Shown: positions 19,770 through 46,642, counted from the stretch's first letter. The stretch: 64,000 nucleotides of DNA from Alphaproteobacteria bacterium (GCA_965237415.1 CBDEFM010000002.1:3072001-3136000); one strand, 5' to 3'. The notes: generated by a model from the sequence alone, not told the origin. A program made the numbers and translations.

Positions 19770-20069
19770 TCACGGCAAAATCTCCTTGACAGTGTTCGCT
19801 TCGCCGACGGCCCCCCTCCCACCGCGACCGTCTCCGTCCAAGCTGTCCAACAATGCCGTCAAGGCGAGCAGATCCGAGACACGGAACGCCGACCGGCCCG
19901 CCGCCACCCTCACAAACGGATCCTCGGCAGCAACGCTGGTCCAGGCTTGCCGCATGGTACGTAGCGTCCCGTCATCTCCCGTGTAATGGACCCAATCCAC
20001 CCCCACCACCGCCATGGTCTCGACTAGTTCGAACTCACGTCCGTGAAGAGGGTGAAACGGGTGCGTCAC
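19770..20069 (-). CDS. DUF5372 (y4bD/y4pK-like) protein
   Basis: VTHPFHPLHG...WTS...DPF...GRSAFRVSDLLAL. Confidence 0.7.
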   Translation of the reverse strand: MTHPFHPLHGREFELVETMAVVGVDWVHYTGDDGTLRTMRQAWTSVAAEDPFVRVAAGRSAFRVSDLLALTALLDSLDGDGRGGRGAVGEANTVKEILP

Positions 20070-20122
20070 CCGAAAGGTACGCCTCTCAACGCACTCAAAC
20101 GGTGCAGTTAAATGCCTTGTCA

Positions 20123-20641
20123 CACATTGCGGTCGACCGGCACTTCTACTCGGTTCCCTACCAGTATGTCGGCAAGGAGGTCGATGTCCGCCTGCGCGGG
20201 CAGGTGATCGATGTCTTCCACCGCGGCCGGCAGATCGCCAGCCATCTCCGCAGCCAGGCCAAAGGCCGCGCCACCACGCTCAAGGAGCATCAACCGCAGG
20301 CGCATCAGCGCGCCGGCGTCGAGGGCACTCGCGACCGGCTGGAGCGGGACGCGCGGGATATCGGTCCCCATGTCCACGCCTTCGTCGTCGCGGTGATGGA
20401 GCGCAACCCCAATCCGGAGTTCGGCTTCCGCTCCTGCTACGGCGTTCTCCGGCTGGCCAACGGCCACGAGCCGGAACGCTTCGACGCCGCCTGCCGCTAC
20501 GCCCTGGAGCTCGGCACCCGGACCTACCGTGGGCTCGACAACATCCTGCGTACCGGCGCCGATCACGCCGCCGCTGAGTTGGAGCCCGAGACCATGCCTA
20601 TCGATCATTCCAACATCCGAGGCCCGGAGGCCTTCAAATGA
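20123..20641 (+). pseudogene. istA: IS21 IstA C-terminal fragment
   Basis: HIAVDRHFYSVPY...IASH...HSNIRGPE. Confidence 0.85.
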
Positions 20642-21889: not shown

Positions 21890-22165
21890 TGAAGCCTCCC
21901 TCTATGCGCAGATCCACGGTCTCAGGTTCGCCAATCCCATGCCGAGATTGCGAACGCATTATTGGCCAACACTCGGAGCCGGTTGTAGAAACGATCAATC
22001 CGCGCCGAACGCCTCTTAGAACTGTCGGAGAAAGCCCAACTCGCCGCGCGAGCGCCGGTAGTCGTGGAGCTGCGCGTTGGTCTCCCGCTCCGCTCTCACC
22101 ACAGCAAACTTCGGGCTATCGTTTGCGTGCCCCGAAGGCCCCGATGATCGATCCGACGATGGTCG

Positions 22166-23806
22166 CTAGTCGCGTTCTGCTCCGAAGGCGCCAACCATGC
22201 TGCGATGTTCTCCGTACTGCGCGGTGAATGCTCCGGCGACTCCGGTGGGTTGCGCTGTATCGGCGGGTGATTCGAAGTTCGAATAGAACTGTGCCTCCCA
22301 CTGCCCGCCGTCGCGAGGAAGCCCTCGAATGGACCACGAAACGGTGTCGACCGCGGCTGCTACTGCGCCGGTCGCGATGGGCCGAGACTTCAACGTCACT
22401 GACCAAGTGGGTTCTGTGTCGAACTCGGTGATGGAGCCGCTGAGTGTATCGGCCTCGAAGTCTGCGATCAGGGTTGCCGTGGCCTGGAACCTTCCGGAGC
22501 GTGAGCGATCGTCTTCCGCGGCTTCGATGTCATAGAAACCGTAGTAGCCAATGGCCGCGCCTTCGTACGTCGCAGATCCAGTAGCACCGGCGACGTTTGT
22601 CACCGCGTTCATCCCGCCGTAGTTTGCTGCGTAGTCGAACACTGCATCGACAGCATTCGGAAGGGTCTCGATTGGCTCTCTCTTCCACCATCCGAACCAC
22701 ATGTACTCTGCGTCTGGAATGATGACCTTTGATGTTGCGCTCGTGGGAATGAACTGCCACTCCGCGTTCGTCCGCCCGAAGACGTAGTCGCCGGGTCCGG
22801 AGATATCTACGGTGCAGGTTCCTCCCGATGCGGCTCCTGCGCAGCGGAACGTTCCCGGAGCGCCTTGAAGCGATCCGGAGATGTCGATGCTGTAGCGTTC
22901 CGGATAGCGGTCCATGTTCCGTACTGCCAGTCGATAGTCTGGTTGGCTGGTGTCGTACGGGGTCAGATCCTGTTCACTGTCATCGATATTGTCGGCACGC
23001 AAAGTTGCAATCTCCGCATCACGTGCCGCCTTTGCATCACGTGCCTCTTGTTTTTGAGCCTCGGTTGGTCCCCGGTCGGTCACGGTGAACGTTTCCAGCT
23101 CGCCCTGCCGTTGTGTGCTCGGACGAGGGAACCGCGAAGATGCCGCGAGTGTTCCATGGGTGGCGGTGATGATGTCGATATGGTTGTCTACCCCGAGGAC
23201 TCTTCCGCTCTCATCGTAAGTCAACGCTGAACCCAACGAATGATCGCGAAAATCTTCTCGTGTCGGAGCTTCCACGTTGGAGAAGATTTCGACGAAGTCT
23301 CTTCTCTGCTCGCTGCTTCCGGATCGAGTGGTCTTGAACCACCCACCTGACGATCCGGTGCTCGTGCTGGTGAACGTCGCGTCGGTAGCGGTGGCAAGCA
23401 CCGGCTCATTGTGCGACAGAGTCGCCGGCGCCAAGGGGACGGCACTGGCGGAGGCGTCGGGAATCGCGGAGACGATTTCGAAGGCGACAAAGCGGTCCAG
23501 CGTCTGCTGCGCCTCGTCACGCTCTTCCTCGGCATCATCGCGCCCCTGCTCGGCCTCTTCGCGCCCCTGCTCTTCCTGCTGACGGCGCTGCTGCTCGGCC
23601 TGGCGCTGGCGCTCGGCCTCCTGCTCCCGTCGCCGCGCCTCGTCCCGTTCGGCCTGAGCGTCTTCGAGCCGCTCCTGGAGCGCTTCCTCCTGGGCCTGGG
23701 ACAGGCCGTCATCGCCGCCCGAGCATGCGCCCAAGCCGATAAGTCCAGCAGCGACGAGCGCCATGACGCTACCGCGGCCAAGCCAACTTCGTCTGATCTT
23801 GTTCAT
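22166..23806 (-). CDS. Slam-dependent surface lipoprotein (coiled-coil linker + TbpB-like C-terminal barrel), 546 aa
   Basis: Lipobox LGAC; GSATYEGAAIG...ATLIADF...GVAGAF...VGAFGA barrel motifs; directly downstream of Slam. Confidence 0.85.
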   Translation of the reverse strand: MNKIRRSWLGRGSVMALVAAGLIGLGACSGGDDGLSQAQEEALQERLEDAQAERDEARRREQEAERQRQAEQQRRQQEEQGREEAEQGRDDAEEERDEAQQTLDRFVAFEIVSAIPDASASAVPLAPATLSHNEPVLATATDATFTSTSTGSSGGWFKTTRSGSSEQRRDFVEIFSNVEAPTREDFRDHSLGSALTYDESGRVLGVDNHIDIITATHGTLAASSRFPRPSTQRQGELETFTVTDRGPTEAQKQEARDAKAARDAEIATLRADNIDDSEQDLTPYDTSQPDYRLAVRNMDRYPERYSIDISGSLQGAPGTFRCAGAASGGTCTVDISGPGDYVFGRTNAEWQFIPTSATSKVIIPDAEYMWFGWWKREPIETLPNAVDAVFDYAANYGGMNAVTNVAGATGSATYEGAAIGYYGFYDIEAAEDDRSRSGRFQATATLIADFEADTLSGSITEFDTEPTWSVTLKSRPIATGAVAAAVDTVSWSIRGLPRDGGQWEAQFYSNFESPADTAQPTGVAGAFTAQYGEHRSMVGAFGAERD

Positions 23807-23916
23807 TGCACGCTCCTCCGCGTTGAGGTTTTCCGATCAATCAACGCCCCAAGTGGGCTACTCCTCTTCGACATGCTCACCACAAAAAATGGTGGGCCGA
23901 CGGTGAGATCGCAGCA

Positions 23917-25362
23917 TTAGAACTGCCGCACGAAGCGCAGCTCGCCGCGCGTGCGCTTGTAGTCGTAGAGCTGCGCGTTGGTGTCGCGCTCCTCGTGCAC
24001 CGCCACAATCGCCGGGCTGAAGCCGAACACCGTGACGCCCCGGTTGTGGACCGAGAGCCGGACGCTCTGGGTGCGATCCGCCCGGTCCTCCCCCACCGGC
24101 GTGTTCGGGAACCACTCGTCCCCGAAGTCGGTCCAGCGCACCTCGCCGCCGCCGCCCACGGTGAAGCCCAGCGGCAGCGCCACCGTAACCCCGGCGCCGA
24201 GCCAGCGGCTGTCGTTGCGCTCGCGGTCGCGCTCGGGCTCCTCATGCGCGTATCCGGCCGAGAGCTCCGCCCGCACCGTCGGCGTCACCACCCACGAGCC
24301 CCGGAGCGATACGTCCCACACCGGCCCGTCCAGATGGTCCCGCATCCGGTAGCGCCGGTCGTGCCAGGAGGCGTTTGCGAATGCCGTCACCCGCGGGGTG
24401 ATCCGCCGCGCCACCTCCAGCCGCGCACCGAGCTCGCGATTGTTCGGCACGGTGCCGACCCAGCGCTGGCGCGCGCTCGCCAGCAGGCTCCCCTCCGTGT
24501 TCTGGTCGATCAGCCAGCGCGGGCCGAGATGGGTGGCGAGGAAGAGCTGATCGAACTCCGAGCGCTCGTACTCCCGCCGCGCCGCCGAGCCACCTGCGCG
24601 CAGCCTGAGCCGCTCCGCCAACGGCACCTGGTACTCCGCCCCGCCCCAGACCGAGACGCCGATGCCCGAGGAGGTCAGCTGCTCCGCATCCCGCTCGAAC
24701 GGCAGGGGCCGGCCAAAGAATTCAATGTAGATGGTCCGCTCCTCGGAGCCCGCGCCGATGTTGCTGTCCGGCGCCAGCGCGAAGCCGACGTTGAAGCTCC
24801 AGCGCCCGCGCGACCTGATCTCGTTGAGGAAGAGGTTGACGTTGACGGCCACCGCGTCGGGCACGCCGCCCGCCAGCACCGCCTCGAAGTGGCGCCGGGC
24901 CAGCTCGTCCTCCCCCTTGAGGAAGAACGCCCGGGCCAGCTCCAGCCGCACCCGCACCAGGTCGGGACGCTGGACCAGCATCACGTGGAAGGCGGCGATG
25001 GCCTCGTCCAGCAGGGTCTCCCGCTCCTCCTCCGGGCGGCCGGGCCGCTGCGATGCCTCCAGCGACGCCAGGCCGTAGAGGAAGAGCGCGTTCGGTTCGA
25101 TCGACTCCTGCTCGAGCAGCCGCCGCAGCGCGACGATTGCCTCCTCGAAGCGGCCGGCGTCGACCAACGCCCCGGCGGCGGCGGCGTCGGGCGATGGCGC
25201 GGTCTCGGTGGGCGATATCCCCCCTTCGTCCGCGCGGGGAGACGGTGGGGGAACGGGCGTCTCCTCGGTCTGCGGCCCCTCTTCCTGGGCGGCGGCCGGC
25301 AGGGAGAGGGATAGCGCGAGCGCAGCGAGAAGGAGGCTGCGCCGCAAAGAGGCAAGCGTCAT
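23917..25362 (-). CDS. Slam (surface lipoprotein assembly modifier; TPR + DUF560 beta-barrel; T11SS)
   Basis: Signal peptide, RVRLELARAFF TPR, APDSNI, barrel ending in FVRQF. Confidence 0.88.
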   Translation of the reverse strand: MTLASLRRSLLLAALALSLSLPAAAQEEGPQTEETPVPPPSPRADEGGISPTETAPSPDAAAAGALVDAGRFEEAIVALRRLLEQESIEPNALFLYGLASLEASQRPGRPEEERETLLDEAIAAFHVMLVQRPDLVRVRLELARAFFLKGEDELARRHFEAVLAGGVPDAVAVNVNLFLNEIRSRGRWSFNVGFALAPDSNIGAGSEERTIYIEFFGRPLPFERDAEQLTSSGIGVSVWGGAEYQVPLAERLRLRAGGSAARREYERSEFDQLFLATHLGPRWLIDQNTEGSLLASARQRWVGTVPNNRELGARLEVARRITPRVTAFANASWHDRRYRMRDHLDGPVWDVSLRGSWVVTPTVRAELSAGYAHEEPERDRERNDSRWLGAGVTVALPLGFTVGGGGEVRWTDFGDEWFPNTPVGEDRADRTQSVRLSVHNRGVTVFGFSPAIVAVHEERDTNAQLYDYKRTRGELRFVRQF

Positions 25363-25393
25363 TGCGAGAACTTTGACTACGTGCGGAAGGGTG

Positions 25394-25423
25394 GAAAAAG
25401 AGGGGCGGCTCAAGGGCCGCCCC
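25394..25423 (-). terminator. Intrinsic terminator between lipoprotein and Slam
   Basis: GGGGCGGC-N6-GCCGCCCC followed by TCTTTTT on the minus strand. Confidence 0.75.
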
Positions 25424-25457
25424 GTGCACTCCGGTCATCTCCGGTTCGTCAGTTGTG

Positions 25458-27431
25458 CTAGTCCTGATCCGCGCCGAACGCGCCGACGACGGCCGTTGCG
25501 GGCATTCCATCGTCGTCTGCCACAGCATCAGCATCGGCTGTCTCGGCCCAGAACCGCCCGGCCACACCGCTCGGAGCGAGCGCACCGTCAGTGTTGCTGC
25601 TCGGCCCGAAGAGCTGGCCGTTCCAGCTACCGTCCCACGACACGCCGTCCGCCGAGCCAGTGGTACCGGTTGCCCCAATGAGTCCATCCATGGTCTCACC
25701 GAAGTCGAATGCTCCCAACAGGACGACCCAGTCGTTCTCGCCGGCCGACGGATCGTTGGGCGAGGCCTGCGTATCGTCCCCCAGGAACACGCCATCGGTG
25801 CCCCGGAAGTTGTCGATGCGACCGGAGATCATGTAGTCGGTCGCATCCTCCACGCCGTCCATATCCGCGTCGAAGGCGGCGGTCAGCATCGCGCGGGCGG
25901 TGAACAGGCCGGAGTCGGCGCCGTCCACGTAGATGCCGGTCGCCCCGCCGCTGTAGGTCGCCGAGCCGCGCAGGCCGGCGGCGTTGTTGGCGGTGAGGGC
26001 GTCAGTTGCAGGCGCCCAGGGGTCCATACCGTTGAAGAACACGCCCATCCTGTGCGTCCCGCCAGGATCGTCAGGCGTGGTCAGCCAGGCGCCGTAGGCC
26101 ATCCAGTCCTGATCCGGGACCGTGATCATGGCGCCGGGATCGGGGGTGAACGACCACCTTCCGGTGGAAGCAGTCATGGTCGGGTCGGCGCTGGTGTTAT
26201 TAACCCCGACTGTGCCATCGTCGTTCCTCACTAGGCCACAACCTGCAGTATCAACCGTCGCCACCCCGATGCACTGAAACTGGCCCGGAGCGCCGAAGTA
26301 CGATCCCGTGAATGTTTCGCTCTCATTGACGCTGAGATCCTGATCCTGGGCCCCGACCAGGGAATCGCTGTCGAAGACCATGGCCGCCCACTGCACGGAA
26401 TCCGCCGCCAGAAGTTCAGCGCCACCGTCTGGTGTAAAAGCATCAGCACCAATGTACACCGATGTACCCAGCGTAGTAACACCGGGATTACTCCCATCGG
26501 CCCGCATGGCCAACGCGAACATGGCCTTCGCGGCATCGTTCACGTACTTACCGGACAGCTTGCGGTCGAAGGGATACGGCGTGCCTTCGCCCAGGTTCTT
26601 GACGACGATGGCGCCCGTCTCGAAGCCGCCGTCGCCCGTGTCGCCTGCCGTGTCGCCCCAATCCCGGTGCAGCGTCTTCATGCCCCAGTCGGTGGGCGCC
26701 ATTGCCATGTCGTCGCTCGCGGGGATTCCGTCTCCGTCCGGCCTCATGGCCCCGGAAATCGTCGAGCCCATCGTGAGGGTTGGCGAAAGCCCTGGCGCTG
26801 CTGCCGCGTTGCCTGGGGCGTCGCCAAAGTCTGCCCCATTCGGATCGAATATGCTCCGCAGCGCGGCCATGCTCGCATCGAGAGCGCCGGGGCCACCGAT
26901 GCCCATCCCGATGAGTTCGGTGGGATCGAGGTCGGGCGGCGTGGTGGTTCCGTCCTGCGCGCCCACGTCGTTGCGAATGGATTCAATACTCCCGTCATTA
27001 AACTCCGCGAACGTATCCATCGGCCCGGGCGGAACCATGGCCGTGGCCATCGGGTCGCCGGCGTCCGCGAGCTTCTGCGTGCTCACACTCGCGACGATCG
27101 TGTCGAGGTTGTTGGTGAGCGTGAACGTGCAGGGATAGGCGCTGTCACAGCTGAACACCACGTCGGCGCGCGTCGCCATCCCGCCGGCCGCAACAGTCAA
27201 CGTGTCGGAGTCACCGGGATTCGGCAGCACCGCCACGAGAGCGGCCTGCTCCGCAGCCCCCAACGCCACATCCATCGTGACGTCGACGGACATGCCCTCC
27301 ATCGGCTCGGGCACTTCCGTCCCGGTTTGCGTGCTGTCGTCGCCATTGTGGACGCAGCCGTACATGACGGCCGAGAGTGCGACGATCGAGCACGCCGCCA
27401 GCATACTGCGAGTCAGCTTCGTCTTCTTCAT
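25458..27431 (-). CDS. Slam-dependent acidic surface lipoprotein with TbpB-like barrel, 657 aa
   Basis: Lipobox MYGC; GSATYSGGATG...LTAAF...ISGRIDNF...VVGAFGA. Confidence 0.88.
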   Translation of the reverse strand: MKKTKLTRSMLAACSIVALSAVMYGCVHNGDDSTQTGTEVPEPMEGMSVDVTMDVALGAAEQAALVAVLPNPGDSDTLTVAAGGMATRADVVFSCDSAYPCTFTLTNNLDTIVASVSTQKLADAGDPMATAMVPPGPMDTFAEFNDGSIESIRNDVGAQDGTTTPPDLDPTELIGMGIGGPGALDASMAALRSIFDPNGADFGDAPGNAAAAPGLSPTLTMGSTISGAMRPDGDGIPASDDMAMAPTDWGMKTLHRDWGDTAGDTGDGGFETGAIVVKNLGEGTPYPFDRKLSGKYVNDAAKAMFALAMRADGSNPGVTTLGTSVYIGADAFTPDGGAELLAADSVQWAAMVFDSDSLVGAQDQDLSVNESETFTGSYFGAPGQFQCIGVATVDTAGCGLVRNDDGTVGVNNTSADPTMTASTGRWSFTPDPGAMITVPDQDWMAYGAWLTTPDDPGGTHRMGVFFNGMDPWAPATDALTANNAAGLRGSATYSGGATGIYVDGADSGLFTARAMLTAAFDADMDGVEDATDYMISGRIDNFRGTDGVFLGDDTQASPNDPSAGENDWVVLLGAFDFGETMDGLIGATGTTGSADGVSWDGSWNGQLFGPSSNTDGALAPSGVAGRFWAETADADAVADDDGMPATAVVGAFGADQD

Positions 27432-27465
27432 GGCTCGAGGCTCTCCTCAGTTTGAAGAGGCCTCG
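27337..27465 (-). repeat. 129-bp inverted repeat, copy 1 (leader, RBS and signal peptide)
   Basis: 125/129 identical to 31395-31523 in opposite orientation. Confidence 0.97.
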
Positions 27466-27721
27466 ATGGGAGGCCTCGCATTGTTGAACTCCAACTGCCA
27501 GCGTACATAACGACTCAGGCAATGTCCATAGCTTCGCACATCAACACAGTACCTCCAAGAAGTCCTTCCCAGAGATACCCCGAACCATAGCGGGCAGTCT
27601 CCGCATCCCGCCATGCCGGGAAACCATGGAACCCACCAAAGGCCGTCCAGGGTCTCCGCCCCGTGTCGCCGCAGCCTCCATGCACATCCTCACGGCATCC
27701 TCCTTGCCGTCCAGCGTGCCG

Positions 27722-27760
27722 TCAAGCAAGCACGCCACAAGCAAGCCGCCAATGCAAGCC
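27722..27760. repeat. Short CAAGC(AAGC) repeats, possible integrase arm-binding sites
   Basis: gtCAAGCAAGCacgccaCAAGCAAGCcgccaatgCAAGC, downstream of the integrases and near the att-like site. Confidence 0.4.
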
Positions 27761-28122
27761 CAAAAAATCAAGGCCCTCCGAAAATTTGCCGCAACGAAAT
27801 CCCTCGTACACCGCCGGTCGAAGCACGTCGCGCCGCATAACCCGGAGCCGGTTGCCCGGCGGGTCCATGTGCTCGTCCAATCCGGGTGTCCCCGCAAGAC
27901 CCTAAGGTGTCGATCGGCGCCGGAGGCGATCCACTGCATCGCGGGTGGTCGAGCACCCAGGCCCTGCCGCGCTGGATGGCGATGACCCGGTGCTCAGGAG
28001 CGATCCCGCCAAACCGACCGTCTCGACCGCACCCGCCGGCTACTGCTCCGGGCCGCTGGTGTCTCCTTAACATATAGCGCAGTGCTTGCCGCCCCATGAT
28101 GCGCCGCTCCACCGCCCGGCCC

Positions 28123-29382
28123 TCACAGCCCTCGGCCCGGAGAGACGGCATCGGACCCGATCGGCGCCGGGGCGGCATCCAGCCCGAAGTCCGCAGGCAG
28201 GATATCCTCTCCGATGCTGGCGGCGACACGGGCCGCCGACGCCTTGACCGAGTCCCGCGCCAGATGTGCATAGCGCGCCGTGGTCTGAACCTGGGCGTGC
28301 CCCAACAGTCTGGCAATCACCGGAAGGCTCTCACCGAGCGCCAGCGCACGGCTGGCGAAGCTATGTCGTAAGTCGTGAATGCGCACACCCTCAAGACCCG
28401 CTCGCGTCCGCACTCGGCACCAGTGCTTGAAGATGTCCGACAGCCGCGCGCCAGGCTTGCGGCCGGGGACGACCCAGGGATTGCCGGCAACGCGCGGCAG
28501 TGCCGCCAGAACCTCCGCCGCCGCCGGCGACAGGGAAACCACTCGAGGACCCGTCTTGCTGTCTGGCAACCGAAGCTCCTTCGCCTCCAGGTCCACGTCC
28601 TCCCAACGCAGGGTCAGGATCTCGTTGCGGCGGCACCCCGTCAGCATCAGCAGACGCAGCGCCGCCACCGCGTGCACCGGCACCCGCCTCTCCGCCTCCA
28701 GCTCCCTCAGCACACGACCGAGGCGGCGGAACTCGGCGTCCGTCAGGAACCGCTCCCGCCGGCCCATCCGATACTTCCGCACATGCCGGCACGGGTTGCT
28801 CCCCGCCGGCGCCACTCCCCAGGCCGCCGCCTCCTCGATCAGCCGCGACAGGGTTGCCACTACCAGGTTCGCCGTAGACGGCCGGTCGCGCAGCCCGTAG
28901 TGCAGGTCGGCAACATGCGTCCGCCCGACCGCCGTGATCGGCAGCTCTCCCAGCACCGGCACGATGTGCTTGTCGACTGCCAACCGGTACTCGGCCACCG
29001 TCCCGGGCTTGCAGCGCACCGCCACATGCTCTCGCAGATAGCGCGCCGCGATGGCGGCCACCGTCGGCTCGCCCCCCGGCGTCGGCGCCATCGGCTCGGG
29101 GACAGGCTCCTCGCCCGCCTTGATGCGGGCGATAATCAGTGCCGCACGGCGGCGCGCCTCATCGGCGGCGATCACCCAGTGACGACCCAACGTCAGGCGT
29201 TTAGAACCATCCGGCCCTCTCGTTTGCACCACGTAATACTTGGACCCCGACGGATAGACCCGCACTCCGAAGCCGGGCAGCTCGGTGTCCCAGAACACCG
29301 TATCCTTCACCACCGACAGCGCCTCCACCGTGCGCTGCGTGATCGATCGTTCTTGCAGCCCCGCCATCCCGACCGGCCTCAT
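28123..29382 (-). CDS. Tyrosine integrase with arm-binding domain (second of tandem pair)
   Basis: WDTELPGFGVRV arm domain; TGCRRNE, SKTG, HDLRH, LLGH...TARYAH. Confidence 0.93.
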   Translation of the reverse strand: MRPVGMAGLQERSITQRTVEALSVVKDTVFWDTELPGFGVRVYPSGSKYYVVQTRGPDGSKRLTLGRHWVIAADEARRRAALIIARIKAGEEPVPEPMAPTPGGEPTVAAIAARYLREHVAVRCKPGTVAEYRLAVDKHIVPVLGELPITAVGRTHVADLHYGLRDRPSTANLVVATLSRLIEEAAAWGVAPAGSNPCRHVRKYRMGRRERFLTDAEFRRLGRVLRELEAERRVPVHAVAALRLLMLTGCRRNEILTLRWEDVDLEAKELRLPDSKTGPRVVSLSPAAAEVLAALPRVAGNPWVVPGRKPGARLSDIFKHWCRVRTRAGLEGVRIHDLRHSFASRALALGESLPVIARLLGHAQVQTTARYAHLARDSVKASAARVAASIGEDILPADFGLDAAPAPIGSDAVSPGRGL

Positions 29383-30560
29383 GCCGTGCCCGTCGCCGCC
29401 ATGATGTCAGCGCCGATGCTGGCGCCGACCCTGGCCGCCGAAGCCTTCTCCGTATCCCGCGCCAGATGGGCGTAGCGCGCCGTGCTCTCCAGGCCCGCAT
29501 GGCCAAGCAGCCCGCCGATCATGCTCAGGCTCTCGCCCAGCGCCAGCGCCCGGCTGGCGTAGCTGTGCCGCAAGTCGTGGATGCGCATATCTTCCAGCCC
29601 GACCAGCGCCCGAAGCCGATACCAATCCCGGGTCAGGCTCGTCAGACGGACCCCTGGCTCCTTGCCCACGATCACCCAGGGATTGCCCGGAACGCGGACG
29701 ATTCCCGCCAGCACCCTCTCCGCCGTCGGCGTCAGCGCCACCATGCGCGCCCCGGTCTTGCCGGCGCGCAGGCGGAACTCCCCCGCCGTCCGGTCCACAT
29801 CGTCCCAACGCAGGGTCAGTATCTCGGTGAGCCGGCACCCGGTCAGCATCAGCAAACGGAGCGCCGCCACCGCGCAGGGCGAGACCGAGCCCGTCGCTTC
29901 CGCCTCGGTAAGCGCCCGGCCCAGGCGGCGATACTCTTCCACCGTCAGGAAGCGTCCGCGCTTGCGCTCCTTGTATTTGCGCACCGAGCGGCAGGGGTTG
30001 CCCCCCTCCGGCGCCAAGCCCCAGACCCCGGCCAGGGAGAACATCTTGGTCAGAATCATGAGCACCCGGTTGGCGGCGCGGGGGGTGTCGCGAAGTCCGT
30101 AATGCAGCACCGACACATGCCCGCCGTCAACCGCGCCTATCGGCATCGCGCCGAGGGCCGGCAGGATGTGGTTCTCGAGTGAGCCACGATAGATGCCGGC
30201 GGTGTGGGCGTTGCAGTTCAGTGCCACATGGCCGCTCATGTAGCGCTCGGCGAGATCGGCGACAGTTATCTCAGGCGGGGGCGGCGGGTTCATGGGGTCC
30301 TCGCCGCTCTTGATGCGGTCGATAACGGTGGCCGCAGTCTCGCGGGCCTGGTCGGGGGTCATCTCGCCATGGCGGCCGAGGGTGACACGCTTGGGCGCGC
30401 CCCGCGCTCTGCATTGGACGACGTAGACCTTTCGTCCCGAAGGGTAGATCCGCACGCCGAAGCCGGGGAGGTCACGATCCCAGAAGACAGTGTCCCTGGT
30501 CTCGGCGGAAAGCGCGTCGACAGTGGGCCCGCAGATGGAGAGGTCGGTTCGTTTGGGCAT
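29379..30560 (-). CDS. Tyrosine integrase with arm-binding domain (first of tandem pair)
   Basis: WDRDLPGFGVRI; TGCRLTE, GKTG, HDLRH, LLGH...TARYAH; ATGA overlap. Confidence 0.93.
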   Translation of the reverse strand: MPKRTDLSICGPTVDALSAETRDTVFWDRDLPGFGVRIYPSGRKVYVVQCRARGAPKRVTLGRHGEMTPDQARETAATVIDRIKSGEDPMNPPPPPEITVADLAERYMSGHVALNCNAHTAGIYRGSLENHILPALGAMPIGAVDGGHVSVLHYGLRDTPRAANRVLMILTKMFSLAGVWGLAPEGGNPCRSVRKYKERKRGRFLTVEEYRRLGRALTEAEATGSVSPCAVAALRLLMLTGCRLTEILTLRWDDVDRTAGEFRLRAGKTGARMVALTPTAERVLAGIVRVPGNPWVIVGKEPGVRLTSLTRDWYRLRALVGLEDMRIHDLRHSYASRALALGESLSMIGGLLGHAGLESTARYAHLARDTEKASAARVGASIGADIMAATGTA

Positions 30561-31394
30561 GACGTGCTGGCCTCGGCATTGTGGCGATGCGGATCGGATT
30601 GCGCGCATGGCTCGGGAGCGCGGCGCCGGTCTCGGAACCGTTCTCCCAGTCTTCGACGGTCTCGAACAAATCGGTTAGTGCCTCAAGGGCAACACGGAAA
30701 ATGCTAATTCGAAGAAAATGTATGTCCTAGCGGCATAGGGTCGAGGGCGCGCGGTCCATGGGGAATCCGAGCCGGCCGCCCGCAACCGGGCGCGAAAAGG
30801 CGCCGCCGGAATGGCCGACGGCGCCTGTTATCCAGTTGCACCTTGTGGTCGTAACTGAAAGAGATCGCCCCGAAAAGATCGTCTTGCGCACCGTGTTGGG
30901 CGGCACTTTCACCCTCCGAACAGTCTCCTTGAGCGGAAGATCTATGTAAGCAATGCCGACAGATCCGCGCGATCGTTTCCGCAACCGATATCTCCCCCGC
31001 ACCTCATCCGGCCAGATAACGAGGTGAGTTCAGGTTCACAGAGTCGGTTGTGAATCGGCGCGCGGATTCGACGCCGATCAGCGCACTAAAGTTAATTTCT
31101 CATAAGTTACAGGGGTCGAGATTGCATGCCGAACCACAGCTGGTGAGGTTGGCACGCCTGGGCATGGAGGCGTCGCGGCTGGTCGGATCCTCCAGACGGT
31201 TCACTGAGCAGTACCGTCATCATTATGCAAGCGACCGTCATCATATTCGAGCGCGTTCAAGGTTGTGATAGTTGGGTATTCGATATCCGGGCTGCTGGCG
31301 AGGGGGGTGAAAATGCGCAGCAAATACCCATAGTTATCGTATTCCGGCGCACGCCTGTCTGGAGTTGGCGCAATAGCGCTACACGTCGGTTGGG

Positions 31395-31523
31395 CGAGGC
31401 CTCTTCAAACTGAGGAGAGCCTCGAGCCATGAAGAAGACGAAGCTGACTCGCAGTTTGCTGGCGGCGTGCTCGATCGTCGCCCTCTCGGCCGTCATGTAC
31501 GGCTGCGTCCACGATGGAGACGA
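31395..31523 (+). repeat. 129-bp inverted repeat, copy 2
   Basis: See 27337-27465. Confidence 0.97.
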
Positions 31524-33246
31524 TCCGGCGCCGGCGACTGACATGGGCATGGAAATGCCGACGACTCCTGAGGCTCTTGCTTGCGACGCGGGGGCGTCCC
31601 AGGCATGTGTGGACGCCCGCCAGGCGGAGCTTGACGCCATCGAGGCCGATGACGATGCCACCGTGGGCGAGCTCAATGCGGCCGAACTGGCCCTTACCGA
31701 TGCGCAGACCGCGCTTGCCGACGCCAACACGGCGGCGGCGGAAGAGATGACGGTCTCGGGTCTTATCGACGACGCCATGACGGCCATTGCCGACATCGAC
31801 GATGAGTCCACACCCGCGGCGGTCGCCACGGGCCGGGCTGCCATCGATGCGGCGCAAGACTCGCTGGACGGGATGGAGAACCTGTCCGCCGACGCTACGG
31901 CGGCCCTCCAGGGCCGGATCGACGCCCTCGAGAGCAGCTTCGCGCCGAATGAAATGGCGGTGGCGATCTCGGCCGCGACCGCGGCGGCGGGCACGAAGTC
32001 GACGGCCGTCGGTGCCGAGGCCGATCAGACGGGAGACGCAGGGCTCGGAGGCAGCGACGCTCCACAGACCGGCACTGCCGGGGCCTACAGCATGACCATC
32101 GAGAACGATGGCACCGGCGCGACGGTCAAGATCGAGTTGGAAGATGCTGCGGACGACGATCCGAAGTTCGTCGATCAGGAGGCGGGCCTGGATGGTGGAC
32201 GCTCCATGCACGTTCGCGCGATGGAAGCGGATGAAGACGGCAACGTGGTGGAAGAAGTCGTCATCGTCAGCACCGACATCGAGGGGCCCAAGGCCACGGC
32301 GTTCGCGATGGTCCATGATCTTAACGCCAACCCTGAAACCACAGGCGGCGGCGACTTCCAATCTCTCGACATCGCCGCTGGTAATTTGGCGATGATGATG
32401 ACGGATGGCATTACTTCGACAGGATCAGGTGAGATCACTCTCCTGGCAGCGGTCGAGGACAACGACGAAACCGATGAGGATGAGACTGTTGCGGCTTTTG
32501 AAACCGCAGCCACCTTCGACGGCGCGCCGGGCACATTGAAGTGCGGCGGCGCCACCGACTGCAGAGCCACGCTCGACGCGATGGGCATGATCACCGCAGT
32601 GGCCGGTGGCTGGATCTTCACTCCCGATGCGGACGTCAGGGTCGACGTGGATGACGCGGACTACCTCCGCTACGGCTTCTGGCTGCAGCGGACGACGGAC
32701 GCAGACGGCGCGGTCACCTACGACGAGGTCGAGACCTTCGCCGGTTCGTCGATTGAGGCAAGCGGCAGTGTTGCTCAGATTAGAGGCAGCGCAACCTATA
32801 AAGGCGGCGCGGTCGGCGTGTACGTGAGGGAAGTGTACAAGGCGGAAGATGGTAGTGTCGACACGGCCACCTCCGGTCACTTCGCGGCGAAGGCCAACCT
32901 GACGGCGACATTCAACCAGACGGTGAATGACCCTGATACGACCATCGACGAAGCAGATTCCATCGCGCCACGACTGCTGAACACCCTCAGCGGAACCATC
33001 AACAACTTCGTCCTGCAACATGGCGAGGCGAACGACTGGGCGGTGGACTTGCAAGGTGACATCGATACCAGCGTTGGCACCGCGAACGGCACGGCCAATG
33101 GTGGCGGCGCGGAAGGCTCGTACAGCGCCACGTTCCATGGTCCGACGACGGACGATGCCCAGCCGCACACCGTTGTCGGCGAGTTCAACGCCAACTTCGG
33201 TAACGGCACCGCGGCCGGCGGCTTCGGCGCGCGGAAGCAGGACTAG
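31429..33246 (+). CDS. Slam-dependent acidic surface lipoprotein with helical N-domain and TbpB-like barrel, 605 aa
   Basis: RBS GAGGAG; lipobox MYGC; GSATYKGGAVG...NLTATF...LSGTINNF...GEFNANF...GGFGA. Confidence 0.88.
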   Translation: MKKTKLTRSLLAACSIVALSAVMYGCVHDGDDPAPATDMGMEMPTTPEALACDAGASQACVDARQAELDAIEADDDATVGELNAAELALTDAQTALADANTAAAEEMTVSGLIDDAMTAIADIDDESTPAAVATGRAAIDAAQDSLDGMENLSADATAALQGRIDALESSFAPNEMAVAISAATAAAGTKSTAVGAEADQTGDAGLGGSDAPQTGTAGAYSMTIENDGTGATVKIELEDAADDDPKFVDQEAGLDGGRSMHVRAMEADEDGNVVEEVVIVSTDIEGPKATAFAMVHDLNANPETTGGGDFQSLDIAAGNLAMMMTDGITSTGSGEITLLAAVEDNDETDEDETVAAFETAATFDGAPGTLKCGGATDCRATLDAMGMITAVAGGWIFTPDADVRVDVDDADYLRYGFWLQRTTDADGAVTYDEVETFAGSSIEASGSVAQIRGSATYKGGAVGVYVREVYKAEDGSVDTATSGHFAAKANLTATFNQTVNDPDTTIDEADSIAPRLLNTLSGTINNFVLQHGEANDWAVDLQGDIDTSVGTANGTANGGGAEGSYSATFHGPTTDDAQPHTVVGEFNANFGNGTAAGGFGARKQD

Positions 33247-33303
33247 AACAGCAGGTCCGGGTCTCTTCGATGAGACCCTGACCTTTTGGGTCAAACTTGC
33301 GGG

Positions 33304-33334
33304 AGAGGGTGGCAGGTTCTGCCACCCTCTTTTT
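33304..33334 (+). terminator. Intrinsic terminator between lipoprotein and Slam
   Basis: AGAGGGTGGCAG-GTT-CTGCCACCCTCT-TTTT. Confidence 0.8.
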
Positions 33335-33360
33335 CTGTCCCCCGACCATCCTTCAGAGTC

Positions 33361-34794
33361 ATGGTTTCGACACTCATCCCTCTCCGCCGCGCGCCGGCGG
33401 CCACGGCCGGCCTGTTCCTCGGCTCTCTTGCAATCGCCGTCTGTCTCGTGCTCGCCGCGCCGGCCTGGGGCGCCGGTGACGAGGGGAAGGCGCCGCCCTC
33501 TCCCGAGACTTCTGCCGTCGAGGCCGAGGCGGAGGCGCGGGCGCTGATGGCGGCCGGCCGCTTCGCCGAGGCGCTCGCCATCCTGCGGCCGCCTGTGGAA
33601 GCCGGGGCGGTGCCGGCCATCCTGGTCTTCCTCTATGGCCTTGCGGCGTCGGAGACATCGCAGCAGCCGGGCCTTGACGATGACGCGCGCGAGGCGCTGC
33701 TGAACGAGGCCATCGGCGCCTTCCACGCCATGCTGGTCGAGGCGCCGGGGCTGGTGCGGGTGCGGCTGGAGCTGGCACGCGCGTTCTTCTTCAAGGGCGA
33801 GGACGATCTGGCGCGGCGCCACTTCGAGGCGGTGCTGGCCGGCGGCGTGCCGGAGGCGGTGGCCGCCAACGTCCAGGACTTCCTCGCCGCGATGCGGGCT
33901 CGCAATCGCTGGAGCTTCAATGTCGGAGCGGCGCTGGCGCCGGACAGCAACATCGGTGCCGGCTCCGAGGAGCGCACCATCTATATCCATTTCTTTGGCC
34001 AGGACTTTCCGTTCGAGCGGACCGCGGAGGAGCTTACGACCTCCGGCATCGGTGTCTCGGTCTGGGGTGGGGCCGAGTATCAGGTGCCGCTGGCGGAGCG
34101 CTGGCGGCTCCGCGCAGGCGGCGAGGCGGCGCGGCGGGAGTACGGGGGCTCCGAGTTCGATCAGCTCTTCGTCGCCACCCATCTCGGCCCGCGCTGGCTG
34201 GTGGACCGCGACACGGCGGCGAGCCTGCTGGCAAGCGCCCGCCAGCGCTGGACCGGCACTGTGCCGGACAATCGCGATCTCGGCGCCCGCCTGGAGCTGG
34301 GGCACCGGGTGAGCCCGCGGGTGACGGTGTCGGGGCAGGCCTCCTGGCACGACCGGCGCTACCGGACGCGGAGCCATCTGGACGGGCCGATCATGGATGC
34401 GTCGCTCAGGGGCTCCTGGGTGGTGACGCCGACGGTGCGGGCGAACTTGTCGGCGGGTTATGGGCAGGAGCGCCCCGAGAGCGAGCCCTATCGCAACCGC
34501 AGTCGCTGGCTGGGTGCGGGTGTTACCGTGATCCTGCCGCTGGGGTTTACGGTGGGCGGCGGCGGCGAGGTGCGCTGGACCGACTTCGACGACGAATGGT
34601 TCCGGCACACGCCGCCCGGCGAAGACAGGGCGGACCGCACGCGCAGCCTGCGGCTCTCGGTCCACAACCGTGCCTTCACCGTCTACGGCTTCAGTCCCGA
34701 ACTTGTGGTGGTGAACGAGGAGCGTGAGACCAACGCCCAGCTCTACGACTACCAGCGCACGCGCGGCGAGCTGCGTTTCGTGCGGCAGTTCTAG
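33361..34794 (+). CDS. Slam (TPR + DUF560 barrel), paralogue of 23917-25362
   Basis: Same motifs; the C-terminal barrel is highly similar to the first Slam. Confidence 0.88.
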   Translation: MVSTLIPLRRAPAATAGLFLGSLAIAVCLVLAAPAWGAGDEGKAPPSPETSAVEAEAEARALMAAGRFAEALAILRPPVEAGAVPAILVFLYGLAASETSQQPGLDDDAREALLNEAIGAFHAMLVEAPGLVRVRLELARAFFFKGEDDLARRHFEAVLAGGVPEAVAANVQDFLAAMRARNRWSFNVGAALAPDSNIGAGSEERTIYIHFFGQDFPFERTAEELTTSGIGVSVWGGAEYQVPLAERWRLRAGGEAARREYGGSEFDQLFVATHLGPRWLVDRDTAASLLASARQRWTGTVPDNRDLGARLELGHRVSPRVTVSGQASWHDRRYRTRSHLDGPIMDASLRGSWVVTPTVRANLSAGYGQERPESEPYRNRSRWLGAGVTVILPLGFTVGGGGEVRWTDFDDEWFRHTPPGEDRADRTRSLRLSVHNRAFTVYGFSPELVVVNEERETNAQLYDYQRTRGELRFVRQF

Positions 34795-35171: not shown

Positions 35172-38100
35172 ATGGTAGCCTCGATCGGCAAGATCGTCTC
35201 GCCGGCGCAGGGCGTGAACTATTATGAGCGCGACGGCTACTACGCGAGGGACGATCCGGCACACCAGGAGGCGAGCGCCTGGGCCGGCAAGGGCGCCGAT
35301 GCTCTGGGCCTCTCCGGCCCCGTCGATCCCGACACCTTCACCGCCATCCTCGAAGGCGAAGTGCCGGACGGCCCGAAGCTCGGCAGACGGGACAAGGACG
35401 GCGACATCCACCACAGGCCGGGCCGCGACGTCACCCTGTCGGCGCCCAAGTCGGTCTCGCTCGCCGCTCTGATCTGTGGCGACCATCGAATCGTCACGGC
35501 GCACGACCGTGCCGTGCAACGCACCCTCGCCTGGATCGAGGCAAACGCCATCGAAACCAGGATGCGGGACCCGTCCACCGGCACGATGGTACGCGCCGGC
35601 GGGCAAGAAATGGTGGTGGCTACCTTCCGCCATGACACCTCGCGCAACCTGGATCCCCAGCTTCATACCCATTGCGTGATTGCGAACATGGTCCGGGGCG
35701 GCGATGGCAAATGGCGGACCATGGTCGATGACGGGCTTTACGGCGGGAAAATGACCATCGGTGCCATCTACCGGGCAGAGCTCGCGCGGGGTCTGAAGGA
35801 CCTCGGCTACCAGATCGAAAAGACCCACACGGACGGGCGATTCGAGCTCGCCGGTGTGCCGCGCAAGGTGATCGATGCGTTCTCGACGCGTCGTGCCGAG
35901 ATCGAAGCAGCCATGAAGGCGCGCGACCTTGGAGCGCCGATCGACGATCCGAGGCTCGCGGATCGGACGGCGCTGATGACGCGGGCGCACAAGCGCGACA
36001 CAGATAAGGACGCGCTGCGCCAGGACTGGTCGCGCCAGGCGCTGGAATTGGGCTTCTCAGCCGACACCTTGGTCGAGATCGCCTCGGCGCGGGAGGCCCA
36101 AGTCCGCGACAGCGTGATGCAAGACCACGGCGATATTGTCGCTTACCGCGATCACGCCGCGCGCTGCGAATACATGACGGTTGGAACTGCAGCCTGGGCG
36201 GCGTGGCATCTCGGCGAGCGCGAAGCAGTGTTCTCCCATGCGTCGCTGCTCGCCGCGACGCTCGCGTGCGATCCCGGCGCGATCACCGTCGATGCGGCCG
36301 AACAGTCTATCGACGCGTTCCAACGAGCCGGTCGCCTGAACGAGGCAACCGGTCTCAAGCACGGCAAGCACTGGACCACGGACGCGGCGCTCGCAAGCGA
36401 GTCCGAGACCATCGCCCTGATGCAGACCGGCCAGGGCAAGAGCAAGCCCATCATGAAGCGCTGGGTTGCGGAGACGAAGCTCCATCGCGGCCGGCTCAAC
36501 GACGGACAGAAGGAGGCGGTCAAGATCATCCTCTCCACCAGGGACCGGGTGGTGGGAGTCCAGGGCTACGCCGGCACCGGCAAGACCACGATGCTGAACC
36601 GGCTCCGCTCTCTAGCGGAGAAACAGGGCTACCACGTGACCGGCCTCGCGCCGTCGGCATCCGCTGCGCGCACCCTGGAGAGGGAAGCGGGCATCGAGAG
36701 TGAGACCCTGCAGCGCTTCGTCGCCCGCCATGCCGGCATTGCAGAAGGACGTGGAACCCAGAAGGGCATTCGCAATCTGCGATCCACCTACCAGAAGACG
36801 CTCCTGGTGGTGGACGAAAGCTCGCTGGCGTCGACCGAACAAATGCGCGACCTGCTGAGGATCGCGACAACGCTGCGCACCGCCCGTGTCGTTCTGGTTG
36901 GCGACGAGAAGCAGTTGGACGGTGTGGAGGCGGGAACGCCCTTCGCCCAGTTGCAGAAGGCCGGCATGAGCACGGCGGTGATGGACGAGATCGTGCGCCA
37001 GCGCGACACACTATTAAGAGAGGCGGTGCGTGCGGGCCTCGCGGGTGAGGTCAAGACGGCCTTCGAGAAGCTCGGAGATCGCGTGTCGGAGGTGACACGG
37101 GATCATCTCGGCGCCGATGTGGCGGAACGCTGGCTCGAATGTTCACCCGAAGAACGCGAGAGCACCGAGGTGATCGCGCCCACGCGAGCGCTGCGGGACG
37201 AGATCAATGAACGGATCCGCGCGCGCTTGTTCGAGGAAGGCGCAATCCACGGACCGGCGATGGCAAGCGAGAAACTGATCTCACGGGGCATGACCAACGC
37301 CGAGATGGCGGTGGCGTCGAACTATGCCGAGGGCGACACGGTGATCTTCAGCCGCCGTTACAAGACACTCGGCGTCGAGAAGGGCGATGAGAGGGAGGTC
37401 GCCAAGGTCGATCACCAGAGACACACCGTCCATCTCCGGGACAGCGAGGGACACGTGGTCGAGTGGAAGCCCTACCTTATCGCCGCGGCCAAGGGCGGTG
37501 TGGAGGTGTACCGGAGCGAGGCAATGGAGTTCCGCACCGGCGATCGTGTGCGCTTTACGCGCAACGATCCAGCGTCCGGCTTGGTCAACGGGCAGGTCGC
37601 TAAGGTTGAAGCGATCGAACAGGATGGCGCTCGGTTCCGTTTGGAGGACGGAACCGCGATCAGACTTTCGGCAAGCGATCCTCAACTTCGTCACGTGGAT
37701 CGCGCATGCGCGTCGACCGTTCACGCCTTTCAGGGCCGGACTGTGGACAACGTGATCGCGGCCATGGTCTCAGACCATCCGCATTTGACGACGCAGAAAT
37801 CGTTTTACGTCGCTATCAGCCGCGCGCGTAACAGCTCCGAGCTGGTCACCGACGACGCGGCGACGCTCTCACACCATCTCGAAAAGGCCACCGGGGAGCG
37901 CATCGCAGCGCTCGACGCGGTCAAGACGTACGTCACACTTGCGGTCGTGATCGACGACGACATGGAGCGCGAGCGTGACGCCGGCCGCAATCAGCGCGCG
38001 CAAGAGGCCGCTCACAGCCGCGATGTTGCGCGAGAAGATTTGGCATCGCGCGATCCTGAGCGCGAATCTGCACGCAATGTCGAGCACGAAGTGACGCGTG

Positions 38101-38282
38101 AATCGGAGAAGCGCGACGCCGATCGGCACCAGCGCGAACGTCAGCCCGCCGACCCAGTGCACGAAGGCGAACGGAAATCGGAGCCACCGCGCGCACCGGA
38201 CCGCGATCCCGCGCCCCAGGCCGAGAAGGAATCGAAAGAGAAAAAGATCGAGTTGGACTTCGAATTGGAGCTGGAGTTGTAG
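35172..38282 (+). CDS. MobF (TrwC/TraI-like) relaxase-helicase
   Basis: YYERDGYY, DVTLSAPKSVS, HDTSRNLDPQLHTH, GYAGTGKT, VDESS, TVHAFQG. Confidence 0.95.
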   Translation: MVASIGKIVSPAQGVNYYERDGYYARDDPAHQEASAWAGKGADALGLSGPVDPDTFTAILEGEVPDGPKLGRRDKDGDIHHRPGRDVTLSAPKSVSLAALICGDHRIVTAHDRAVQRTLAWIEANAIETRMRDPSTGTMVRAGGQEMVVATFRHDTSRNLDPQLHTHCVIANMVRGGDGKWRTMVDDGLYGGKMTIGAIYRAELARGLKDLGYQIEKTHTDGRFELAGVPRKVIDAFSTRRAEIEAAMKARDLGAPIDDPRLADRTALMTRAHKRDTDKDALRQDWSRQALELGFSADTLVEIASAREAQVRDSVMQDHGDIVAYRDHAARCEYMTVGTAAWAAWHLGEREAVFSHASLLAATLACDPGAITVDAAEQSIDAFQRAGRLNEATGLKHGKHWTTDAALASESETIALMQTGQGKSKPIMKRWVAETKLHRGRLNDGQKEAVKIILSTRDRVVGVQGYAGTGKTTMLNRLRSLAEKQGYHVTGLAPSASAARTLEREAGIESETLQRFVARHAGIAEGRGTQKGIRNLRSTYQKTLLVVDESSLASTEQMRDLLRIATTLRTARVVLVGDEKQLDGVEAGTPFAQLQKAGMSTAVMDEIVRQRDTLLREAVRAGLAGEVKTAFEKLGDRVSEVTRDHLGADVAERWLECSPEERESTEVIAPTRALRDEINERIRARLFEEGAIHGPAMASEKLISRGMTNAEMAVASNYAEGDTVIFSRRYKTLGVEKGDEREVAKVDHQRHTVHLRDSEGHVVEWKPYLIAAAKGGVEVYRSEAMEFRTGDRVRFTRNDPASGLVNGQVAKVEAIEQDGARFRLEDGTAIRLSASDPQLRHVDRACASTVHAFQGRTVDNVIAAMVSDHPHLTTQKSFYVAISRARNSSELVTDDAATLSHHLEKATGERIAALDAVKTYVTLAVVIDDDMERERDAGRNQRAQEAAHSRDVAREDLASRDPERESARNVEHEVTRESEKRDADRHQRERQPADPVHEGERKSEPPRAPDRDPAPQAEKESKEKKIELDFELELEL

Positions 38283-46635: not shown

Positions 46636-46642
46636 TCCCCCT

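Follow-up and report, generated by a model that had tools for sequence, protein, structure and literature searches.

Switches that act on surface lipoproteins by DNA inversion are familiar from Mycoplasma, Ureaplasma, and Bacteroides, and the sap locus of Campylobacter fetus provides a counterpart in architecture. The Slam systems, or type XI secretion systems (T11SSs), are known as exporters of host-interaction lipoproteins. We analyzed a 64,000-nucleotide (nt) stretch of an alphaproteobacterial genome assembly (GCA_965237415.1, contig CBDEFM010000002.1, positions 3072001 to 3136000; this whole stretch is called the window) in which two divergent operons, each with a lipoprotein gene and a Slam gene, flank a 3.9-kb segment that encodes a tandem pair of tyrosine integrases, int1 and int2. 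The best reading of this locus, which we hold with moderate confidence, is a site-specific inversion system that would move a promoter-bearing stretch of DNA, the P arm, between the two lipoprotein-Slam operons. From the genome comparisons described below, it is very probable that recombination at a short core sequence, O, reshuffled these loci in the past, and we give an even chance to the proposal that the 3.9-kb segment still switches.

In the sap system, opposed surface-protein genes with conserved 5' ends flank an invertible segment that holds the only promoter; inversion is RecA dependent, the conserved 5' regions extend over several hundred nucleotides, and the segment is not known to contain a recombinase gene. 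The window locus is like sap in that inversion of a promoter segment between opposed surface-protein genes would change the gene that is expressed, but it differs in that the common part can be as little as 12 to 30 nt, two integrase genes lie inside the segment, and the cargo consists of lipoprotein plus Slam operons. The vpma and vsp loci of Mycoplasma have a Xer-type tyrosine recombinase encoded nearby and short sites upstream of lipoprotein genes, and inversions at these loci move one promoter. Excerpts of two reports on Ureaplasma mba describe a surface lipoprotein switch with a Xer-type tyrosine recombinase (PMC3047005, PMC3599477). A lipoprotein family with a highly conserved 5' untranslated region and signal peptide, with a tyrosine recombinase nearby, is common to the Mycoplasma and Ureaplasma switches and the window locus. 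However, the former have one small Xer-like recombinase outside the inverted DNA and wall-less hosts, whereas the latter has two arm-binding integrases of 410 to 420 amino acids (aa) inside the segment, a diderm alphaproteobacterial host, and an outer-membrane translocon of its own for each cargo.

The fimS switch of Escherichia coli is served by FimB and FimE, which are small, lack arm-binding domains, are encoded outside the 314-bp switch, and act separately to turn one operon on or off. Both fimS and the window locus have two paralogous tyrosine recombinase genes in tandem beside an invertible promoter element (a proposed one in the window locus), but the window locus would toggle between two operons instead of acting as an on/off switch. 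In Bacteroides, shufflons and invertible promoters place SusC/SusD-like pairs behind one promoter by means of common 5' ends. A tyrosine recombinase beside alternative outer-membrane/lipoprotein gene pairs is again a shared feature, while the phylum and export system are different, the recombinase is single, and the repeats lie within 5' coding regions. The integrases of lambda- and P4-type elements also have an N-terminal arm-binding domain and act on a short common core between long dissimilar arms with repeated motifs; unlike in those elements, the sites in the window are inverted and bound the integrase genes themselves, and there is no tRNA target in the window. The presence of two paralogous recombinases and of a core with two unlike half-sites resembles XerC/XerD.

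The locus also resembles the Slam/T11SS loci of Neisseria and Haemophilus, where a PF04575 gene stands beside lipoproteins with a C-terminal barrel, as given in the main text of a T11SS cargo survey (10.1101/2024.09.26.615229). That main text mentions mobile islands and transposases, and the words "recombinase" and "inversion" each occur 0 times in it. Our literature search, which took in the main text of this survey, found no recombinase-linked or invertible Slam/T11SS locus. The portions of the literature searched tie variation of T11SS cargo to horizontal transfer and not to programmed DNA rearrangement. Should the module prove active, it would represent the first switch of T11SS cargo by a recombinase, and a case in which tandem arm-binding integrases have been taken up for inversion instead of integration. 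With a core of ~30 nt and compact integrases, the system could be rebuilt in a laboratory host and would be testable there, though the organisms are uncultured.

The anatomy described by the first-pass annotation, two divergent lipoprotein-Slam operons around an integrase segment, matched our coordinates and protein families. The left operon lies on the minus strand and runs from lipoA (25458-27431), an open reading frame (ORF) with the conserved signal peptide, through SlamA (23917-25413) to a third surface lipoprotein gene, SLP3 (22166-23806); lipoA is downstream of int1 and co-directional with it. The right operon, on the plus strand, consists of lipoB (31429-33246), an ORF at the P end, and SlamB (33286-34794). 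A repeat search reproduced the 129-bp inverted repeat that had been annotated over the leader, ribosome-binding site (RBS), and signal peptide, with arms at 27337-27465 (minus strand, containing core O1) and 31395-31523 (plus strand, containing core O2). The arms are identical at 125/129 positions (97% complementary) and are spaced by 3929 nt, and each comprises 34 nt of leader and RBS followed by the first ~32 codons of lipoA or lipoB. The abrupt divergence of the two genes past the repeat was seen as described, with a common part of ~30 N-terminal residues (MKKTKLTRS.LAACSIVALSAVMYGCVH.GDD) and an unrelated remainder. A BLASTP comparison of lipoA with lipoB gave one significant segment, with 42/71 identities. 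The Slam genes themselves form a second inverted repeat of 1168 nt at 82% identity.

The intervening segment carries intact, overlapping int1 (28123-29382, minus strand; PF00589, E value of 1.3e-22, and PF13356, E value of 2.5e-9) and int2 (29379-30608, minus strand; PF00589, E value of 1.3e-18, and PF13356, E value of 1.1e-12). Both proteins matched Arm-DNA-bind_3 and Phage_integrase above the cut-offs and are arm-type tyrosine integrases by these matches. The int2 stop and the int1 start overlap by 4 nt, the proteins of 410 to 420 aa are 58% identical, and the catalytic R, HxxR, H, and Y are kept in both (TGCR, HDLRH, LLGH, and ARY, read from an alignment by eye). Because the genes overlap, the int1 and int2 types pair in every module, and the core half-sites are unlike, the arrangement suggests that the two integrases act as a heteromer in the manner of XerC/XerD. 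We rejected an integron, since integron-integrase models matched only a short C-terminal stretch (40 to 46 bits against a cut-off of 265) and there is no cassette array. A plasmid collection yielded 3 records with weak, integrase-only matches.

We compared the segment with other genomes of the genus, which are metagenome-assembled genomes (MAGs) of uncultured Alphaproteobacteria/Rhodospirillales; the genome of the window is designated G000. Besides the integrase genes, the segment has a single ORF, "orf132" (27541-27939, 132 codons), which lies in the D region (27466-28122, minus strand). This ORF has no family match, a GC content at third codon positions of 0.71 compared with 0.82 to 0.84 in the integrase genes, and a frameshift or interruption in both orthologous segments (G004 and G013). 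We therefore found no support for it as an excisionase or other gene, which leaves the segment coding for two integrases alone, as annotated. No excisionase-like gene was found in the window. The D region is 93 to 98% identical to that of G013, which exceeds the 88.7% identity of the integrase genes, despite the broken ORF in G004 and G013. This noncoding region may hold binding sites or an RNA.

Core O is a quasi-palindrome that contains the RBS and, as RNA, forms a 13- to 14-bp stem that buries GGAG. The 4.75-Mb genome has the 33-nt core in 3 places, each of them within the window and next to an integrase pair. O1 (27432-27464, minus strand) is a 100% match to the 33-nt core query, and core searches located O2 (31396-31428, plus strand) and the third and last genomic copy, O3 (48623-48650, minus strand). 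O1 and O3 have the same orientation and are identical at 26/28 nt (93%), and O2 is inverted. The variable center of the core differs from module to module, but in the G000 module and in the G004/G013 module the two ends have the same center. On the D side of O1, two GAGGCCTC octamers 5 nt apart form a hairpin (27457-27477) whose second half is common to O1, and other modules have the same octamer hairpin at their D ends. Six other regions of the genome with integrases of this family, mostly in tandem pairs or trios, had no core and no flanking inverted repeats. A repetitive extragenic palindromic (REP)-like dispersed element is excluded by the 3 core copies in 4.75 Mb. A transposon with terminal inverted repeats was also rejected, since each flank is always one of a few conserved arms (A, Y, or Z, described below) and the other integrase regions are without repeats.

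Inversion of the segment, as supposed by the annotation, would be visible as opposite orientation in related genomes, and we found two such cases, with breakpoints in the repeat. In the first, window positions 27438-30631 (D region, int1, and int2) align with G004 at 88% in one orientation, and positions 22502-27467 (lipoA, SlamA, and SLP3) align at 82% in the opposite orientation, beyond the other end of the segment. The 30 nt that the segment and flank alignments have in common are the core, and the same picture was seen in G013. In G004 and G013, the P arm adjoins lipoA and the D arm adjoins a different arm, Y, whereas in the genome of the window, lipoA is at the D arm. The P arm of the window (30609-31394) is the divergent intergenic region between int2 and lipoB and is the presumed promoter arm. 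It aligns with the P arm of G004 in collinear patches, apart from ~400 nt of an inserted repeat that has copies elsewhere in the genome, and the whole core-to-core segment is therefore orthologous. A part of the P arm, 30958-31140, matches several other places in its own genome at 74 to 78% and has the appearance of a small dispersed repeat.

The second case concerns module 3, which holds the dead integrase pair beside O3. Its segment is 91 to 94% identical to that of G004 module 1 and is reversed relative to a syntenic block that extends from Y to a TrwC-type relaxase gene; this block is faced by the D arm in G004 module 1 and by the P' arm in module 3 of the window. We infer that the current arrangement is a G004-like canonical array after two inversions, O1 x O2 (3.9 kb) and O2 x O3 (17 kb). 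In the inferred canonical array, lipoA would be at the P arm of the main module, D would be joined to Y, and the stretch from lipoB to TrwC would be at the P' arm of module 3.

We classified the sites across the genus by the arms that meet at O. The arm upstream of O is of one of two kinds: P, which spans the 246 to 821 nt up to a divergent int2 (at P+A sites this is the distance from int2 to the lipoprotein start), or D, which lies downstream of int1, is co-directional with it, and terminates in the GAGGCCTC octamer hairpin. Downstream of O, the A arm is the ATG and signal peptide of a lipoprotein gene, the Y arm is a conserved ~340-nt element without a lipoprotein gene followed by small genes, and the Z arm is unrelated sequence joined directly past the hairpin. 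A pattern search found 30 sites in 12 sources (11 P+A, 6 D+A, 6 D+Y, 1 P+Y, 4 hairpin-only, and 2 unclassified). A similarity search found 35 A- or Y-arm sites (22 P+A, 6 D+A, 3 D+Y, 1 P+Y, and 3 unclassified), a set in which one P+A site duplicates an unclassified one and from which the filter dropped three D+Y sites of the pattern set. All four arm combinations occur, and every junction falls at one point directly past GGAGAGCCT. D arms that are nearly alike are joined to A in one genome and to Y in another, and this was seen in four D-arm families. The DNA flanking O has thus been swapped repeatedly, with O as the exact point of exchange.

The D+Y and P+A sites have just ~12 to 30 nt in common, and Y sites retain the RBS-like half of the core though no gene follows. 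Because sites without a lipoprotein gene have the core alone in common, the exchange point is, on these alignments, a core of ~10 to 30 nt that surrounds the RBS at the 5' edge of the repeat, and not the signal-peptide part. The proposal that recombination in the repeat swaps the two upstream regions thus holds in part: segments are flipped in sister species and the break is in the leader, but the breakpoint spans the short core and not the signal-peptide part. A shufflon of the R64 type (Rci) was rejected, since the exchange point is upstream of the ATG and the Y and lipoprotein arms part directly after GGAGAGCCT. The form of the site followed the integrase: the left half-core is present at 13/13 P+A sites whose int2 is at least 66.7% identical to that of the window and is lacking at 8/8 whose int2 is at most 64.5% identical, counts that come from related sequences, not independent samples, and carry no statistical test. 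Motifs such as CCGTAATCACT, CTCCAGCGTA, and GCGTAC are found in one and the same order both in the int2-proximal part of P arms and in the Y element (for example, L025, L027, and L037; window 48470-48530) and are candidate arm-type binding sites.

The 129-nt repeat itself is confirmed, but it is not peculiar to this locus: its arms are two copies of a genus-wide conserved block. In this block of ~130 nt, core O with its RBS is followed by the lipoprotein signal peptide. The 129-nt block was found in 15/21 genomes of the genus, with up to 9 copies each, and in 0/400 sampled genomes from elsewhere in the class. A tandem integrase pair adjoins most of the block copies whose surroundings were examined. 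An exception to this linkage is L081 (G002:C6, 9883-9998), a lipoprotein gene with the full core and leader and no integrase in the 10 kb upstream. Among 27 lipoprotein 5' ends, the mean conservation over codons 1 to 28 was 0.94, 0.97, and 0.91 at codon positions 1, 2, and 3, respectively, and it fell to about 0.52 to 0.58 in codons 33 to 40. The conserved codons of the block include the rare codons ACT, AGT, and TTG, and on the upstream side, conservation starts abruptly at the core. The integrases beside the blocks have a protein identity of just 52 to 88% while the block is conserved, and therefore the block is held alike at the DNA level or by exchange. A single nucleotide-conserved leader common to many surface lipoproteins of the lineage is a possible handle for their cargo repertoire in metagenomes.

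These data bear on the alternative that there is no dedicated system, in which the leader and signal peptide would be kept alike by selection or gene conversion, the rearrangements would come from homologous recombination, and the integrases would be ordinary island integrases. We regard this alternative as distinctly improbable. It would fit with a block that is common to the entire lipoprotein family, with an island rich in mobile DNA (IS1595- and IS5-type transposases, a Mu-type transposase domain, and a relaxase), and with the same-family integrases, mostly tandem pairs or trios, that occur elsewhere in the genome without lipoprotein genes. However, the ~12 to 30 nt in common are too little for efficient homologous recombination, yet exchange there recurs in four D-arm families, and plain homologous recombination is unlikely because many exchanging sites have the core alone in common. 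Moreover, the half-core persists at Y sites with no gene behind it, neither the remainder of the genome nor its other integrase regions contain the core, third codon positions (the rare codons included) are about as conserved as the first two, and the site type tracks the integrase clade.

Inverted repeats that bound a segment with a recombinase gene inside were not confined to the window, since the same layout, with the integrase segment between two lipoprotein genes, was found in 8 modules from 8 genomes. These mirror modules are those of the window (129-nt repeat), G020 (95-nt repeat), G004 and G005 (paralogues ~74% alike), G017:C8, G014:C89, G013:C9, and G011:C2. They argue against an assembly artefact, in which a mis-join at the repeat would account for the segment's orientation or for the second lipoprotein operon. 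The genomes are metagenome assembled and short-read unitigs break at the repeat, which would favor an artefact, but the genome of the window is in 2 contigs with the window 3 Mb inside one, the architecture is the same in 8 independent assemblies, and Logan metagenome contigs from four (X1, X2, X3, and X5) of 22 listed runs cover 30/30 bins of 24500-34200. We therefore consider an artefact highly improbable.

Contigs of X1, X2, and X3 also join 27681 to 31425 on opposite strands (depth of 4.6 to 10.9; side 42). This join would put the P arm and core directly before an internal ATG of "orf132" and is not the junction predicted for inversion at O. A scan of metagenome contigs with the lipoB protein gave 68 pattern matches and no relative, and a scan with a 27-nt stretch of the D arm gave 0 matches, with near-identical records possibly outside the scan.

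In the inversion mechanism that we propose, the translationally coupled int1/int2 pair would carry out conservative site-specific recombination at O, and recombination between inverted O sites would flip the intervening DNA. The flip would move the P arm, with its presumed promoter, from one lipoprotein-Slam operon to the other, and the operon left at the D arm would sit behind the integrase operon and the hairpin. Because the gene upstream (int2) is divergent in P+A modules, the promoter of the lipoprotein-Slam operon is predicted to be in the P arm. In the current state, lipoB-SlamB is at the P arm and is predicted to be on, and lipoA-SlamA-SLP3 is at the D arm and is predicted to be off or weakly read through. 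Other geometrically possible events would be an O2 x O3 inversion (17 kb) and an O1 x O3 excision (21 kb).

Several observations weigh against inversion at O as the explanation of the locus. A simple consensus scan of 27300-31600 found no promoter-like site facing lipoA or lipoB; the sole promoter-like site (31269-31240) is directed towards int2, the sole terminator-like site is inside int2, and neither is above shuffle expectation. The metagenome data consist of short unitigs that stop at 27436 and 31421/31424, on the margin of the repeat, and gave no read-level sign of two orientations. The canonical modules (P+A with D+Y) were seen in the simple inverted state (P+Y with D+A) in 0/7 cases, and the arrangements of G000 and G004 differ by more than one event. 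The length of the core center varies by up to 3 nt between modules and is shorter still in the G004/G013 variant, and the ends of beta-type modules have just ~12 nt in common, which is unusual for a fixed recombinase core. The flanking lipoprotein genes of the G017:C8 module (L020; 118-1950 and 7172-9100 of a 26-kb contig) are 100% identical over at least 1967 nt in inverted orientation. This perfect inverted duplication points to duplication or gene conversion, and not reciprocal inversion, as one route of origin, and it also favors the alternative without a dedicated system. Finally, O1 and O3 are direct repeats around 21.2 kb of DNA that holds int1, int2, lipoB, SlamB, the TrwC relaxase gene, and a Y element.

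The direct repeats are equally compatible with integration, which is the strongest rival explanation, though we consider it rather unlikely. In this alternative, a 21.2-kb O1-O3 element (27466-48650) would have used a D-O-Y junction to insert into the leader of a lipoprotein gene already resident there (P'-O-lipoA, in module 3). The mirror layout would be a by-product, the integrases would serve integration and excision, and the incoming cassette would replace the resident one. The D+A junction at O1 and the P'+Y junction at O3 are the exact pair that one such insertion would leave, units of this kind stand head to tail in G004 with D+Y junctions between them, and the integrases are of the arm-binding type that is typical for integrative elements. 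T11SS genes are also reported alongside mobile islands in the main text of the cargo survey (10.1101/2024.09.26.615229). However, lipoA adjoins the orthologous integrase segment in G004 and G013 at its other end, an adjacency that inversion predicts and that integration would explain only by chance. In its core center, O1 agrees fully with O2 and departs from O3 at 3 positions, the presence of lipoprotein genes at both ends recurs in 8 modules, and no empty site, circular junction, or tRNA target was seen. The window contains 0 tRNA genes and 0 Rfam matches.

The locus is, from the layout of the window, one node of a multi-site system, with a third core 17 kb off, a dead integrase pair beside it, and a relaxase gene between. 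The TrwC-type relaxase/helicase gene (35172-38282, plus strand; PF08751, E value of 2.5e-82, and AAA_30, E value of 5.3e-52) directly follows SlamB. O3 is flanked on one side by module 3 (48651-51823, plus strand), which tblastn fragments delimit as a P' arm, a split int2', and a cut-off int1', with the dead pair spanning 48905-51823. An IS5-type insertion sequence at ~49047-50247 splits int2' and yields a 443-codon fusion ORF; its transposase ORF (49232-50227, minus strand) matches DDE_Tnp_1/DUF772 with an E value of 4.4e-28. The int1' reading frame ends at ~residue 166. On the other side of O3 lies the Y element (48290-48622, minus strand), a non-lipoprotein arm of ~340 nt that is conserved at 7 places in 5 genomes. 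The flank of this Y element contains a HigA antitoxin gene (46312-46662, minus strand; TIGR02607, E value of 1.3e-25, above the cut-off) and is 86.6% identical over 685 nt to the Y flank of the main module of G004. A second copy of Y in the window (45361-45697, minus strand) is without a full core. The two copies are nearly identical over the first ~100 nt, and the upstream copy has only a degenerate half-core.

A broader and more tentative proposal, drawn from these arrangements, is that of a multi-site system that is restricted to the genus among the genomes searched. In such a system, a heteromeric pair of arm-type integrases would shuffle entire lipoprotein-plus-Slam cassettes from one promoter arm to another. 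Within one island this would proceed through inversion, and between mobile islands through the exchange or integration of cassettes, and the core would double as a hairpin that sequesters the RBS. If this cassette-shuffling proposal is true, it would mean programmed variation of type XI secretion cargo and translocon in a free-living or environmental alphaproteobacterium.

The annotation had described the cargo as Slam-exported TbpB-like lipoproteins, and family matches among relatives together with fold matches of lipoB support this. The Slam genes themselves were clear by family search, with PF04575 (SlipAM) E values of 7.9e-23 for SlamA and 1.4e-23 for SlamB (81.8 and 84.3 bits, respectively, against a cut-off of 22) and with N-terminal tetratricopeptide repeat (TPR) families. 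The putative lipoprotein signal peptide MKKTKLTRS.LAACSIVALSAVMYG-C is present in 27 family members, with M-Y-G as the residues at -3 to -1, which is not a textbook lipobox. Family searches with lipoA and lipoB gave no direct match to any family, NF041636 and PF01298 included. The C-terminal 230 residues of both align with those of 21 other lipoproteins of related loci (alignment A1), and of the 23 aligned domains, 9 match NF041636 (best E value of 1.7e-14) and 6 match PF01298 (best E value of 8.7e-14). A structure model of the C-terminal 230 aa of lipoB (predicted local distance difference test score of 83.9; predicted template modeling score of 0.77) has a C-terminal handle and 8-stranded barrel fold. 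PDB fold matches 1 to 20 of this model were fHbp, the TbpB C-lobe or whole TbpB, hemophilin, and HphA, with a probability of 1.00 and moderate template modeling scores of 0.38 to 0.47. A PDB sequence-profile search with the alignment of lipoprotein C termini gave 0 matches. Because the aligned relatives match NF041636 and PF01298 and the lipoB model folds as fHbp and TbpB do, the cargo is, as far as the model and these matches go, Slam-type lipoproteins.

SLP3, the last gene of the left operon, matched NF041636 slam_lipo (E value of 3.4e-8) and PF01298 TbpB_B_D (E value of 1.5e-4), both below the cut-off, and its C-terminal 240 aa are 31% identical to lipoB (E value of 4e-17). Within the operons, a hairpin between lipoB and SlamB had a z score of -4.1 (0/200 shuffles folded equally well), and one between lipoA and SlamA had a z score of -2.2. 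Downstream of SLP3, a ~100-nt remnant like a Slam 3' end (22016-22117, minus strand) is a direct repeat of 23917-24018 at 78% and an inverted repeat of 34703-34793 at 81%, and it resembles what a past duplication or deletion would leave. Elsewhere in the window, we found an IS1595-type transposase gene (38397-39332) directly after the relaxase gene, an ORF with a Mu-transposase C-terminal domain (19853-20641) to the left of the locus, and a gene for a SIR2_2-domain protein (55451-56737) in a low-GC stretch (55 to 58 kb, GC content of ~0.56).

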